Below are positions 4,071 through 29,135 of a stretch of 64,000 nt of DNA, piece by piece. Source of the stretch: an uncultured Clostridia bacterium (GTDB lineage Bacteria > Bacillota > Clostridia > Oscillospirales > Acutalibacteraceae). The DNA is taken from NCBI GenBank assembly GCA_937901145.1, contig CALCHE010000228.1, forward strand, positions 11,709-75,708, in the 5' to 3' direction. The position numbers and the translations under genes are program-made. The first letter of the stretch is position 1. Every line of letters starts with the position of its first letter. Below the pieces are notes generated by a model, which was given only the letters and a program-made list of their open reading frames with translations, ran no database searches and was not told the DNA's origin.

Positions 4071-4087
4071 TAAACAAATAATACATA

Positions 4088-4117
4088 AGAGACTGTCTTC
4101 GGACGGTCTCTTTTTTT
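4088..4117 (+). terminator. Intrinsic terminator
   Basis: AGAGACTGTC-ttcg-GACGGTCTCT followed by TTTTTT. Confidence 0.85.
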
Positions 4118-4159
4118 GTTAAAAAGCAGATAAAATATTAATTATTTTTGAATAAACTA

Positions 4160-4188
4160 TTGACTTTTTTATTTCTATCATATATAAT
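4160..4188 (+). promoter_or_regulatory. Sigma-A-type promoter for the P1-P2 peptide bicistron
   Basis: TTGACT (4160-4165), 17-nt spacer, TATAAT (4183-4188). Confidence 0.6.
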
Positions 4189-4239
4189 TTAAGCATATTA
4201 AGGGAAACCTTGATAAATTTAAAAAGGAGGCACACAATA

Positions 4240-4371
4240 ATGGAAAAATTCACTGAAATTCTCAAGCTCGTTCTTAACTATTTCTGGGAAATCTTCAAGT
4301 TCTGGGAAATCATCCCCGGCGATCTCGCTGACAAGATTGAAGACGAAGCTGACAAAGCAGCTCAGAACTAA
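4240..4371 (+). CDS. Small peptide P1 (43 aa), aromatic amphipathic N-terminal part plus acidic tail, no signal peptide
   Basis: AAAGGAGG then 8 nt to ATG. MEKFTEILKLVLNYFWEIFKFWEIIPGDLADKIEDEADKAAQN. Below the 60-aa cutoff of the ORF track. Confidence 0.6.
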   Translation: MEKFTEILKLVLNYFWEIFKFWEIIPGDLADKIEDEADKAAQN

Positions 4372-4418
4372 TTTAACTGATTAATTTAATCAAAAAATAC
4401 TTATAGGAGGAACACAAT

Positions 4419-4550
4419 AATGGATTGGGCAAAAAACTTTGCTGAAATGTGGGAACGTCTTTGGGACCTTCTTATTTTCCCCATTCTTAAAATGTTTGGC
4501 ATTGAAAAGAATGAAGACGGCAACCTTGAATACGTAGAAAAAGCTGAATA
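4419..4550 (+). CDS. Small peptide P2 (43 aa), same family as P1
   Basis: TAGGAGG then 8 nt to ATG. Its initiation region aggaggaacacaataatgga differs at one position from that of P1 (aggaggcacacaataatgga). MDWAKNFAEMWERLWDLLIFPILKMFGIEKNEDGNLEYVEKAE. Confidence 0.6.
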
Positions 4551-4580
4551 ATTCTATCTGAATTAAACAATTGTTTAAGG

Positions 4581-4615
4581 ACACAACCCACCTTTCGGTG
4601 GGTTGTGTTTTTTTC
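4581..4615 (+). terminator. Intrinsic terminator after P2
   Basis: ACACAACCCACC-tttc-GGTGGGTTGTGT (12-bp perfect stem) followed by a T-run. Confidence 0.9.
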
Positions 4616-4625
4616 TTTCTAAATA

Positions 4626-4654
4626 TTGACATTTCTGAGCAGTAGTTATATAAT
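4626..4654 (+). promoter_or_regulatory. Sigma-A-type promoter for peptide P3
   Basis: TTGACA (4626-4631), 17-nt spacer, TATAAT (4649-4654). Confidence 0.6.
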
Positions 4655-4686
4655 TATATTGTAATAATTATTGCAGGAGGAACTGT

Positions 4687-4791
4687 ATGATGAAAAACAT
4701 TGAAGCTTACTTTAAAGGTGTCGTTGACTGGATAGAGAGACTTTTCACTATTATTTTCGAATTCCTCGGCGATATCGGAGTAGAGGCATAA
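4687..4791 (+). CDS. Small peptide P3 (34 aa), same family
   Basis: GCAGGAGG then 6 nt to ATG. MMKNIEAYFKGVVDWIERLFTIIFEFLGDIGVEA. The segment RLFTIIFEFLGD matches KLFDTIFEFLRFD at the C-terminus of the 3612 protein, and both share the DNA string TTCGAATTC. Confidence 0.6.
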   Translation: MMKNIEAYFKGVVDWIERLFTIIFEFLGDIGVEA

Positions 4792-4806
4792 AATTGTTTA
4801 AAGTTT

Positions 4807-4840
4807 AAGAGACTGTTCATAACGAACAGTCTCTTCTTTT
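4807..4840. terminator. Bidirectional intrinsic terminator (P3 on +, dnaJ on -)
   Basis: AAGAGACTGTTC-ataac-GAACAGTCTCTT followed by CTTTTTT. The stem sequence resembles the terminator at 4088. Confidence 0.8.
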
Positions 4841-26961: not shown

Positions 26962-27621
26962 TTACCTCTTCTCTGTTATATTGTTTTCGTCTTTGTAAAT
27001 AGAGTTTTCTTTTACAAAGCCTCTGACGCGTGAAAGGGGATAGATGATTGTATTTTTACCGATTACCGTACCGGGGTTAAGGACACTGTTGCAGCCTATC
27101 TCGACACCGTCACCTACCATTGCACCGAATTTCCTGAGTCCGGTTTCTATTATTTCGTCAGCTTTTTTTATTTTGACAGGACTTTTATCTGATTTGATAT
27201 TTGACGTAACGGCACCTGCTCCTAAATGTGATTTGTATCCGAGGATACTGTCACCTATATAATTATAGTGGGGGATCTGAACCTTGTCGAATATGATAGC
27301 ATTTTTTATTTCGGTCGAATTGCCTACAACACAGTCTTCGCCGATCAGAGCTGAACCTCTGATGAAAGCGCAGTGCCTTATTTCAGTATTTTTTCCGATA
27401 ATACAGGGAGAGCCTATGAAAGCTGTAGGTGCCACCCTGGCATTCTTATGAACCCATATTTCAGGTGCAATTTCCGTATATTCGGATTCATTAAGATTTT
27501 TCCCTGCTTCTTTAATAAAACTGCTGATTTCTTTGAGTGCCTGCCACGGATATTCATAGGAAGCAAGATAATCTTTGGCTAATGTATGCTTAAGAGAAAA
27601 AAGCGCATCTGTTTTAATCAC
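26962..27621 (-). CDS. Left-handed beta-helix (hexapeptide-repeat) acetyltransferase, GlmU C-terminal-domain-like
   Basis: 219 aa, GTG start 5 nt after AGAGGTG. Imperfect hexapeptide repeats throughout. Lies 3 nt upstream of glmM. No nucleotidyltransferase domain. Confidence 0.75.
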   Translation of the reverse strand: MIKTDALFSLKHTLAKDYLASYEYPWQALKEISSFIKEAGKNLNESEYTEIAPEIWVHKNARVAPTAFIGSPCIIGKNTEIRHCAFIRGSALIGEDCVVGNSTEIKNAIIFDKVQIPHYNYIGDSILGYKSHLGAGAVTSNIKSDKSPVKIKKADEIIETGLRKFGAMVGDGVEIGCNSVLNPGTVIGKNTIIYPLSRVRGFVKENSIYKDENNITEKR

Positions 27622-27837
27622 ATTATCACCTCTTGATTATATTATACTGTACAATGCAGTTATAATATAAATAAATTGTGAATATAATCGGAGAAATATT
27701 TTTGTCAGTTTATATATTTTATACAAAACAGAGCCTGTTATGAAATGCTACAACAACTAAATAAGGCTGAAATAAAAGGTGAGAACACTATTTCGTTGTG
27801 CATAATATACAAAATAAAATAAATATGTGAAAAACTA

Positions 27838-27866
27838 TTGACAGATAAATGTAATTTATGTATAAT
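27838..27866 (+). promoter_or_regulatory. Consensus sigma-A-type promoter driving a non-coding unit
   Basis: TTGACA (27838-27843), 17-nt spacer, TATAAT (27861-27866) with TG immediately upstream. Confidence 0.6.
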
Positions 27867-27872
27867 TAAGAC

Positions 27873-28445
27873 ACAATCAAACAAGAGATTGAAACTAAAA
27901 GAAAGAGGTGTTACCGATGTACTGTTTAATGTAAACTGTACAGTCTGATAAGAAATCTTGAATTTGATAATCTTACGGGGCTGACCGAAAATAAAGGATT
28001 GAATAAATACCTGAAAATAATATAATTTTACAAAAGGGTCAGATATTCCGTTGATAATAAAGTAAATTACCTTTCTGCAGACACTAAGTGCAGAGGATTT
28101 AGGAATATATTATCGATTGTTCAGTAAATTTTGTGTTTTAAAGGTAATGTGCAGAGGAACATAACTTTAAAACAGGAGAAAGTGCCTTTGTGTGAAGAAA
28201 CAACGGCTGATGAAGAAAATAAAGAAAGTATCTCTCAGCATTATACGTTTTCTATGATTCGGATTTATTATTTGCATCTGAAAAGTAAAGAGGGATAAGT
28301 AAAAGGCGCAGAGGAGCCCTTATCCGAAAGTGTTTTTAAAGTGACTTTTAGTGCGAATAAGGAGATACTTAAAGAGTAAGAAAACAGAATAAAAACATTA
28401 TGAAAGTTCAGTCTCCGGCAGAGAATACTCTGTCGGAGATTTTTA
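27873..28445 (+). ncRNA. Candidate large structured non-coding RNA (about 570 nt), class unknown
   Basis: Bounded by a consensus promoter and a 12-bp-stem terminator. No ORF of 60 aa or more in any frame. Several hairpins, three of which show the identical loop GCAGAGGA. The ends are estimates. Confidence 0.45.
28412..28445 (+). terminator. Intrinsic terminator of the non-coding unit
   Basis: TCTCCGGCAGAG-aata-CTCTGTCGGAGA followed by TTTTT. Confidence 0.85.
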
Positions 28446-28479
28446 TATGTGTCTAAAGAATAAATTTATCGTCTTGTAC

Positions 28480-28508
28480 TTGAAATATCCTTTCTGTTGA
28501 TATATAAT
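28480..28508 (+). promoter_or_regulatory. Promoter of the queT leader
   Basis: TTGAAA (28480-28485), 17-nt spacer, TATAAT (28503-28508). Confidence 0.55.
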
Positions 28509-28523
28509 ACTTATTATGTTTAT

Positions 28524-28598
28524 GCGGTCAGTTCGAAACCTTCCTGACCTAAACCGACGGAAGTATCCCGGTTTAAAATCAAAACTAAAGGAGCTTAA
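28524..28598 (+). promoter_or_regulatory. Probable preQ1 riboswitch (class not resolved)
   Basis: Directly upstream of queT. Hairpin GGTCAG-ttcgaaaccttc-CTGACC. Its loop CTTCC can pair with GGAAG (28559-28563) inside a second hairpin AAACCG-N12-CGGTTT (pseudoknot). An A-rich tail AAAATCAAAACTAAAGGAG runs into the SD. Confidence 0.6.
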
Positions 28599-28601
28599 AA
28601 A

Positions 28602-29135
28602 ATGAATATGTCAAAAAGAATTCACCGACTTGTCCTGTCGGGAGTTATCGCTGCTTTGTATGTAGCACTCACTCTTGTTCAGGAAATGATTTTTCCTACC
28701 AGTGCCACTATGGCTGTACAGTTCCGTGTTTCGGAAGCACTTACGGTGCTGTCCCTGTTTACACCGGCAGCTATACCCGGTCTTACGGTTGGCTGTTTTA
28801 TAGCCAATTTCTCTGTGCTCGGAGCGTTGCCTACTGATATAGTTCTCGGCTCGTTGGCATCTTTTTTAGCGTGTCTTTTTATGTACAGGTTAAGGAATTT
28901 TACTGTGAAGGGATTTCCTTTTTTATCTTTGCTTATGCCTGCACTTTTTAACGGAATTATTATCGGTGCAGAAATCGAGATTTTCTTTATTGAAGGACCC
29001 TTTAATTTCGTCAGCTTTCTTATCCAGGCAGGCCTTGTAGCCTTAGGAGAGTTAGGCGTACTTTACACTCTTGGTGCCGCTCTGGTCAGAGTAATAAAGG
29101 ATAAAAAGCTCGGCAGGTATCTTAACGGTGTTTAA
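28602..29135 (+). CDS. queT: Queuosine-precursor transporter QueT
   Basis: 177 aa, 5-6 TM, QueT-like N-terminus (RLVLSGVIAALYVALTLV..., RVSEALTVL). RBS AAAGGAG 8 nt upstream. Confidence 0.85.
   Translation: MNMSKRIHRLVLSGVIAALYVALTLVQEMIFPTSATMAVQFRVSEALTVLSLFTPAAIPGLTVGCFIANFSVLGALPTDIVLGSLASFLACLFMYRLRNFTVKGFPFLSLLMPALFNGIIIGAEIEIFFIEGPFNFVSFLIQAGLVALGELGVLYTLGAALVRVIKDKKLGRYLNGV

Follow-up and report, generated by a model that had tools for sequence, protein, structure and literature searches.

Positions 27838-28446 of the stretch analysed here (the window: 64,000 nucleotides of contig CALCHE010000228.1, from an uncultured Acutalibacteraceae bacterium) probably hold a new stand-alone gene for a structured, non-coding RNA that belongs to no described family, a reading to which we give a probability of about 0.85. 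We favour it because this element is conserved far above neutral expectation, shows significant covariation, lacks a coding signature and keeps its promoter and terminator among its homologues. The original prediction had proposed a large structured non-coding RNA (ncRNA), from a known class or from a new one; the conservation, covariation, non-coding pattern and conserved transcription signals support the second of these.

Bacterial ncRNAs longer than about 400 nucleotides (nt) with extensive conserved structure are rare, and RNase P, tmRNA, OLE, GOLLD, ROOL and RNAIII each turned out to do something unusual. The element would add a well-supported new family from the uncultured, ecologically important Acutalibacteraceae of ruminant and other animal guts. 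It is also open to direct testing, given exact coordinates, an alignment of 12 sequences, 15 helices and two candidate recognition loops.

Transcription unit, conservation and coding potential

The element lies in a gap of 980 nt (27622-28601) between the gene of an LbH protein of 219 amino acids (aa) on the minus strand (26962-27621) and queT on the plus strand (28602-29135). This gap had been picked out as the longest non-coding stretch of the window, and it is indeed the longest without an open reading frame (ORF) of at least 110 aa; the runner-up, at 4071-4840, contains three bona fide small genes. Within the gap, ORFs reach 55 aa at most, in agreement with the earlier statement that no frame reaches 60 aa. 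On the plus strand, the sigma-70 promoter TTGACA-17-TATAAT was recovered at 27838-27866, where it had been noted, with a score of 12/12 in the promoter scan. Only three perfect consensus promoters of this type occur on both strands of the 64-kb window, and another of them drives a bona fide small-protein gene. From the promoter spacing, transcription is predicted to start at about 27873.

The 3' end of the predicted RNA is marked by an intrinsic terminator on the plus strand, found by the terminator scan at 28410-28441 with a 14-pair stem (7 G-C) and a 4-nt loop, and followed by the T-run TTTTTAT to 28446. The hairpin and T-run had been placed essentially correctly before, with the stem given as 12 bp at 28412-28445. 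A second plus-strand promoter, TTGAAA-17-TATAAT (28480-28508), scores 11/12 and precedes queT, as the earlier report of a separate queT promoter at 28480 had stated. The predicted RNA is about 570-600 nt long (computed for 8 of the 12 copies described below) and AU-rich, with 33% G+C; on the plus strand, A makes up 39%, G 21% and A+G 59%.

Further copies were sought through relatives of the LbH protein, by a scan of species-representative genomes and then of contigs encoding close LbH homologues from a large protein collection. Twelve distinct full-length copies are available, comprising the window, L002, L003, L004, L005 (identical to L156), L006, L152, L153, L159, L160, L161 and L164, in addition to three truncated ones, and the nhmmer E-values of the homologues range from 1e-120 to 1e-173. 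The carriers are metagenome-assembled genomes (MAGs) of Acutalibacteraceae, Oscillospiraceae or 'Clostridia', all uncultured, and most of their records name an animal gut as source (goat, yak and other livestock). In the sequences covered, the candidate gene is confined to a single sub-clade of the Acutalibacteraceae (Oscillospirales), from the guts of ruminants and other animals.

The transcription signals are kept among the copies. Eleven of the 12 have both promoter hexamers without a mismatch, the exception being L006 with TTGACG; the 17-nt spacer between them is free to vary, and an AAAACTA upstream of the promoter is invariant. The terminator stem is fully paired in all 12 sequences, with 2 compensatory and 3 one-sided changes, and the sequence of its hairpin is conserved in the alignment far beyond what is usual for terminators. 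Conservation extends over the rest of the unit. Comparing the window with each homologue, the element is 64-82% identical (gaps counted as mismatches), and the four-fold degenerate sites of the adjacent LbH gene are saturated at 33-47%. Across the 12 sequences, 37% of the columns of the element are invariant versus 8% of the LbH third codon positions. The 100 nt between the two divergent promoters are 45-67% identical, and the first 90 nt of the predicted transcript 82-93%. These comparisons show purifying selection along the whole length of the element.

A 37-nt block on the plus strand (27905-27941) is identical in all 12 sequences. It contains a Shine-Dalgarno (SD)-like GAGGTG (27905-27910) and a putative mini-ORF of 5 codons, ATG TAC TGT TTA ATG TAA (MYCLM, 27917-27934). 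This raises the alternative that the unit is foremost an mRNA, with the peptide MYCLM or some other small protein as its product and the rest untranslated. The SD, its 6-nt spacing to the ATG and the in-frame stop are kept in 12/12 copies; the spacing is like that of the real LbH start AAGAGGTGATAATGTG, and the SD is as good as that of this neighbouring real gene. Against it, the mini-ORF covers 18 of about 570 conserved nucleotides. A conserved small ORF had been named at the outset as a possible explanation of the region, and only this one is kept, which cannot account for the conservation of the whole unit. The synonymous positions of the mini-ORF are invariant too, implying constraint at the nucleotide level. 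No ORF of at least 12 aa is common to the homologues: the 55-aa frame of the window is disrupted by stops and non-triplet indels in other species, and a 19-aa TTG frame is stopped in L002 and L160. Between species, stop-free runs extend over 29-77 codons on the plus strand and 47-197 on the minus strand.

The pattern of substitutions leads in the same direction. The proportions of variable columns in the three phases of the element are 0.64, 0.63 and 0.63, without 3-nt periodicity (p=0.95), and those of LbH are 0.41, 0.28 and 0.92 (p=4e-45). The real small genes of this genome also look different, with an AGGAGG SD and products of 34-43 aa. We consider the mRNA explanation improbable, although it survives better than the other alternatives to an RNA gene.

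In every copy found, the element is located upstream of, and divergent from, LbH-glmM-ung. The non-coding gap upstream of LbH has a median of 75 nt in 75 loci, and all gaps of at least 450 nt carry the element; in L189 and L190 (LbH 70-71% identical), L155 and L162, there is no room for it beside LbH. The gene beyond the terminator is queT-MFS in most copies, a GFO/IDH/MocA oxidoreductase gene in L005/L156 and a 2-hydroxyacid dehydrogenase gene in L161, where the terminator faces this convergent gene. This arrangement bears on the possibility that the element serves the queT-MFS operon as a very long leader acting in cis, either a riboswitch or an attenuator; the terminator at 28410 would then be a conditional attenuator. 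In the window and most homologues, the element and queT point the same way, and a mini-ORF followed by a terminator superficially recalls ribosome-mediated attenuation. However, the oxidoreductase downstream in L005/L156 is unrelated, and the convergent gene of L161 leaves nothing to read into. Moreover, queT has a conserved promoter and a conserved leader of its own, the latter present in L007 without the element, and the mini-ORF is about 480 nt away from the terminator. Because the gene on the far side varies, a queT leader is very unlikely, and in L161 no downstream gene would be regulated in cis. The original prediction had likewise held that this is not the queT 5' untranslated region, and the unit is indeed retained in two lineages whose downstream gene is another one or is convergent.

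Consensus structure and repeated loops

A consensus fold was obtained with RNAalifold on the 12 sequences, and pairs were counted over 102 pairs in 15 helices (1208 cells), with 500 column shuffles and 3' partners slid by 1-3 columns as controls for covariation. Starting with a 5' hairpin, the fold has two domains, each with a long-range closing helix, as well as several hairpins and the terminator. As expected of a structured RNA in the original prediction, the collected nhmmer copies show covariation, with 21 double-change pairs versus 6.9±2.0 in the shuffles (reached in 0 of 500) and 3-7 with slid partners. On the plus strand, 97.3% of the cells are paired, versus 87.5% on the minus strand, and G·U alternates with Watson-Crick pairing in 39 of the 102 pairs. 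The alternation and the drop on the other strand indicate an RNA encoded on the plus strand and argue against a palindrome that acts at the DNA level.

These data also weigh on a role of the sequence as DNA, that is, as operators or nucleoid-protein sites that control the divergent LbH-glmM operon. The element always adjoins LbH-glmM divergently, and the invariant block has a near-palindromic TGTACA-type sequence, with a similar ACTGTACAAT in the LbH promoter region. Such a role is nevertheless hardly credible: the strand-dependent pairing and the G·U changes are RNA-specific, conservation runs over 570 nt and stops at the terminator, conservation of the ACTGTACAAT near LbH fails in L003, L005 and L006, and the 100-nt spacer between the two promoters is near neutral. 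A complementarity between ACUGUACAAU of the RNA and the 5' region of LbH was also rejected, as the LbH copy is not conserved in the same three loci.

All helices are described on the plus strand. H1, the 5'-terminal hairpin (CAATC/GATTG, 27874-27891), has 5 bp, 100% of its cells paired and one G.U change. The long-range helix H2 (27936-27951/28110-28124; 15 pairs, 97% of cells paired) closes the 5' domain (27936-28124); five of its pairs vary one-sidedly (A-U/G.U/G-C) and none is compensatory. Inside this domain, H3 and H4 (CGGG..CTGACC/GGTCAG..TCCG, 27976-28050) together have 4 compensatory pairs, three of them in H4 (CTGACC/GGTCAG, 27981-27986/28037-28042), a helix that had already been drawn by eye and is confirmed by these changes. 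The hairpin H5 (CTTTCTGC/GCAGAGGA, 28071-28097) consists of 7 pairs, of which 6 vary one-sidedly and 1 is compensatory; in other species, GCAGAAAA pairs with TTTTCTGC.

Further downstream, the hairpin H8 (GCC..TGT/ACA..GGC, 28184-28207) has a conserved loop, GTGAAGAAAC, and 2 compensatory pairs. The 3' domain (28226-28370) is closed by the long-range helix H9, in which AAGTATCTCT (28226-28235) and GGAGATACTT (28361-28370) form 10 pairs, and it encloses H10 and H11. H9 changes in a compensatory manner in L006, from AGUAUC/GAUACU to GGUAUC/GAUACC, and H11 (28270-28277/28351-28358) has 4 compensatory pairs. A pairing of the SD block with 28227-28235 was considered and rejected, since it breaks in L006, where H9 covaries instead.

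The invariant 5' block takes part in competing structures. A local hairpin at 27919-27941, earlier drawn as GTACTGTTTA-ATG-TAAACTGTAC with 10 bp, can be formed with 9 bp and a central U.U mismatch; being invariant in 12/12 sequences, it is beyond the reach of covariation. H2 overlaps the 3' arm of this hairpin, so the two are mutually exclusive, and the stop codon of the mini-ORF ends 2 nt before H2. In addition, the otherwise variable H3/H4 loop holds a conserved island, AATACCT (28006-28012), which is complementary to the SD-like block. The informative pair of this SD:AAUACCY contact is A-U in 7 sequences, G.U in 3 and G-C in 2. The putative pseudoknot is not significant, since 90 of 500 shuffles do as well, and we keep it as a hypothesis compatible with the data. 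An SD, AUG and 5-codon ORF that are absolutely conserved between competing helices are an unusual design and a concrete experimental handle.

A further feature of the element is the repetition of the 8-mer GCAGAGGA. The two strands of the window (128 kb) have just five copies in all, and three of these are inside the element, on a single strand and in a span of 226 nt. The first copy is the 3' strand of hairpin H5, and the other two are apical loops of a repeated module, in which a lower stem of 7 bp is joined through an A-rich internal loop or bulge to an upper stem of 3-4 bp that is capped by an 8-nt loop. In module A (28137-28171), the lower stem H6 (28137-28143/28165-28171; 5 of 7 pairs compensatory) is followed by an A-rich internal loop and the upper stem H7 (ATGT/ACAT), with the loop at 28151-28158. 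Module B (28293-28325) combines H12 (GGATAAG/CTTATCC, 28293-28299/28319-28325), a TAAAA bulge and H13 (GGC/GCC), with the loop at 28308-28315; H12 is 100% paired with 1 compensatory change (G-C to A-U in L006). Both stems had been anticipated, the first at 28135-28173 and the second as a 7-bp stem at 28293-28325, and the compensatory pairs support them. Loop A is GCAGAGGA in 12/12 sequences, with the apical AATGTGCAGAGGAA invariant in 12/12. Loop B follows GCAGARGA in 10/12, reads UCAGAAGA in L160 and is lost in L006. The stems of the two modules differ and covary.

Known RNA families and possible function

At gathering score, neither the whole window nor any of 10 homologous loci matched an Rfam 15 family. 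A search of 27600-28620 at E<=10 found none of ROOL, GOLLD, OLE, HEARO and raiA, the five classes that the original prediction had named, and its matches in the gap were noise with E about 1-2 (a yeast snoRNA, a CRISPR repeat and a telomeric ncRNA). As Rfam 15 gives no match, these classes are excluded as far as covariance models tell. A search of the open-access literature on described large RNAs and on RNAs near glmM found nothing that corresponds to the element.

A diverged member of ROOL, GOLLD, OLE, HEARO/omega RNA or raiA may in principle be missed by covariance models. The element is near ROOL and OLE in size (about 580-610 nt), and it shares a rumen or gut origin with ROOL and a Firmicute host. 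Yet the 1-kb search yielded no match at E<=10, nothing reached gathering score in 11 sequences, and the surroundings differ. There are no tRNA genes in the 64-kb window and no prophage genes among the neighbours, which are Bmp, uracil-DNA glycosylase, GlmM, LbH, QueT and MFS. No relatives of the element were found in phage and plasmid (blastn) or IMG/VR viral collections. For HEARO, the IscB omega RNA (RF02033), there is neither an Rfam match nor an IscB/IS605-type ORF at the examined loci. Similarly, the raiA motif RNA (RF03072) has no match in the window, the gap or 10 loci, and no oapA-like gene of the kind that accompanies OLE stands beside the element, whose neighbours are LbH together with QueT, the oxidoreductase or the dehydrogenase. 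We regard membership in one of these classes as extremely improbable.

ROOL (RF03087), GOLLD (RF01998) and OLE (RF01071) are 'ornate' large RNAs for which assemblies have been described by cryo-electron microscopy (PMC12286853). They share with the element a large non-coding fold of many helices, an occurrence in Firmicutes and in rumen or gut material and, for ROOL and OLE, the size; GOLLD is longer, at about 800 nt versus the predicted 570-600 nt or so. None matches the element by covariance model. ROOL and GOLLD occur in a prophage or tRNA setting and OLE by oapA, whereas the element has a chromosomal housekeeping context; they spread across orders or phyla, whereas its distribution is very narrow. 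It also differs in being AU-rich and in having an SD and a mini-ORF.

Relatives were also sought by short sequence. There are no paralogues of the element within the window, and an invariant 21-mer had one chance match in metagenome contigs (L151), with dissimilar flanks. A 17-mer around loop A gave 24 viral matches, all in ordinary coding sequence (K-C-A-E-E-Y) with unrelated flanks, and was rejected. The spaced pattern GCAGAGGA-N40-70-GCAGAGGA-N135-165-GCAGAGGA occurs in 69 viral contigs (L082-L150), far above a rough chance estimate. Many of these matches have a length of exactly 224 nt, and several lie in tandem. None of the 69 proved related to the element by blastn or nhmmer, and their source is probably a conserved coding sequence that contains repeats.

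Public MAG annotations call an ORF of 207 aa antisense to the element in L152 (2177-2800) and L153 (2172-2795), and the minus strand is poor in stops, which might suggest a pseudogene remnant or the antisense of a real gene. This is very improbable: the ORF has no Pfam match and no homologue but itself among 5.8 billion proteins, it is interrupted in the other 10 species (minus-strand stop-free runs of 47-145 codons), and the compensatory changes, G·U alternation and conserved promoter and terminator would be unexpected in a pseudogene. The call arises because the complement of a purine-rich strand (A+G 59%) has few stop codons. Public genomes thus already mis-annotate the antisense strand of the element as a hypothetical protein. 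Used as a handle for further copies, the ORF retrieved only itself.

Several observations weigh against the reading of the element as a new RNA gene or restrict it. The transcript of about 570 nt is a prediction from sequence. The single-sequence fold is only modestly better than shuffles and barely strand-specific (z of -2.79 on the plus strand and -2.41 on the minus strand), which is why comparative data were needed. Although the covariation of the entire structure is significant, several helices (H1, H2 and the local 5' hairpin) are invariant or have only one-sided changes. H8 is deleted in L160 and hence dispensable there; together with the loss of loop B in L006, this indicates that not every module is essential. 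In L155 and L162, where LbH is 77-79% identical and BlaI/BlaR stand next door, the element is missing beside LbH, so that in these relatives it would be either dispensable or moved elsewhere. The SD/AUG block may simply serve as a strand in a tertiary contact of the RNA, with no translation at all. Sites complementary to loop A show no excess over shuffles in the 64-kb window. Finally, the family is narrow, with 12 sequences from one clade, and this distribution limits the finding.

In RNAIII of Staphylococcus, C-rich repeated loops pair with SDs, and the hld ORF has 26 codons. Among known systems, the layout of the element appears to resemble this agr effector (RF00503) most, as a functional analogy and not as homology. 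Both would be stand-alone genes with their own promoter and terminator, about 500-600 nt long, with some 14-15 helices and domains closed by long-range helices. In both, the same apical loop sequence recurs on hairpins that differ, the terminator hairpin would be a conserved component of the functional RNA, and the 5' part has a short ORF preceded by an SD; each also has a genus-level distribution and high conservation over its whole length. On the other hand, there is no similarity in sequence or by covariance model, the ORF of the element has 5 codons in place of the 26 of hld, and no agr-like quorum-sensing locus lies next to it. Further, the C-rich loops of RNAIII contrast with the purine-rich GCAGARGA, so the targets of the element would have to be pyrimidine-rich.

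On this analogy, we tentatively propose, at odds well short of even, that the element is a trans-acting, multi-domain RNA that regulates or sequesters a partner, with loop binding and ribosome loading. The twin GCAGARGA loops would serve to recognise a partner, either a pyrimidine-rich RNA or an RNA-binding protein. The SD, AUG and 5-codon ORF, 45 nt from the 5' end, may load a ribosome or 30S subunit and thereby protect that end. Because the stop of the mini-ORF sits 2 nt before H2, a ribosome there would cover the 5' strand of H2 and the local hairpin, and it could toggle the 5' domain between the two. A bolder and distinctly more doubtful version is a class of ribosome-gated regulatory or sponge RNA, in which the mini-ORF is built into the fold and reports translational status while the loops capture a partner. 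Ribosome loading or termination at 27917-27934 would then switch between hairpin and H2 and free or occlude the SD:anti-SD pseudoknot. If true, such an RNA would have no described counterpart.

The proposed 5'-end protection recalls the 5' stabilisers of Bacillus mRNAs, which include ribosome stalling on the ermC leader, the cryIIIA STAB-SD and the aprE leader. The element shares with them a 5'-terminal hairpin and, near the 5' end, a strong SD; a ribosome or 30S subunit loaded there could shield the RNA from 5'-to-3' decay. These stabilisers sit on mRNAs, however, whereas here the protected body would be a non-coding RNA. The SD-AUG-ORF of the element is moreover invariant at every nucleotide, unlike the stabilisers, which implies more than simple ribosome binding.

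Two other functions may be considered. One is an OLE/ROOL-like ribonucleoprotein or assembly, which is possible although classes of that kind tend to be much more widely distributed. Less likely is a sponge like CsrB. CsrB, RsmY and RsmZ are likewise stand-alone RNAs with a strong promoter and GGA-containing purine motifs in hairpin loops and single-stranded linkers, but the element has only one invariant GGA loop, in module A, and module B reads GAAGAG in most species. The remaining GGA sites are in stems or not conserved, and the motif does not fit A(N)GGA. Likenesses to the T-box sequence (GGUGNUACCG) and to RAT antiterminator sites (GGAUUGUU...GCAGG) were taken as chance, as spacing and context do not fit and Rfam gives no match.

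Other features of the window

The LbH protein corresponds to the acetyltransferase half (positions 215-391) of TIGR03992, archaeal-type or alternative GlmU; after its gene come glmM and then the genes for uracil-DNA glycosylase and Bmp. In L189 (3001-6657), a more distant relative, the operon has the order LbH-glmS-glmM, which supports a role of the LbH protein in the hexosamine pathway, and a gap of about 300 nt before glmS is a candidate site for a glmS ribozyme.

On the other side of the element, the queT leader (28480-28601, plus strand) has its own conserved promoter and two conserved hairpins. The first is the invariant GGTCAG-TTCGAAACCTTC-CTGACC. In the second, AAACCG...CGGTTT, the loop varies, and an A-rich tail and an SD come after this hairpin. 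No Rfam family, PreQ1-I, -II and -III included, matched this leader in the window or 10 loci, even at E<=10. It is present in L007, which lacks the large RNA, and it may be an unrecognised variant of a preQ1-type riboswitch. Short direct repeats link the interior of the RNA (28046-28077) to the queT promoter region (28483-28502), AAATTACCTTTCTG with AAATATCCTTTCTG and TTCCGTTGATA with TTCTGTTGATA; they may be due to chance in AT-rich DNA.

Elsewhere in the window, three tandem small ORFs of 43, 43 and 34 aa are encoded on the plus strand (4240-4371, 4420-4551 and 4687-4791), each with a canonical AGGAGG SD. In their region (4160-4835), promoters that score 11/12 and 12/12 precede them and strong terminators lie around them. 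Pfam and NCBIfam give no match to the peptides, which look amphipathic and rich in Trp and Phe and are possibly leaderless bacteriocin-like or membrane-active.

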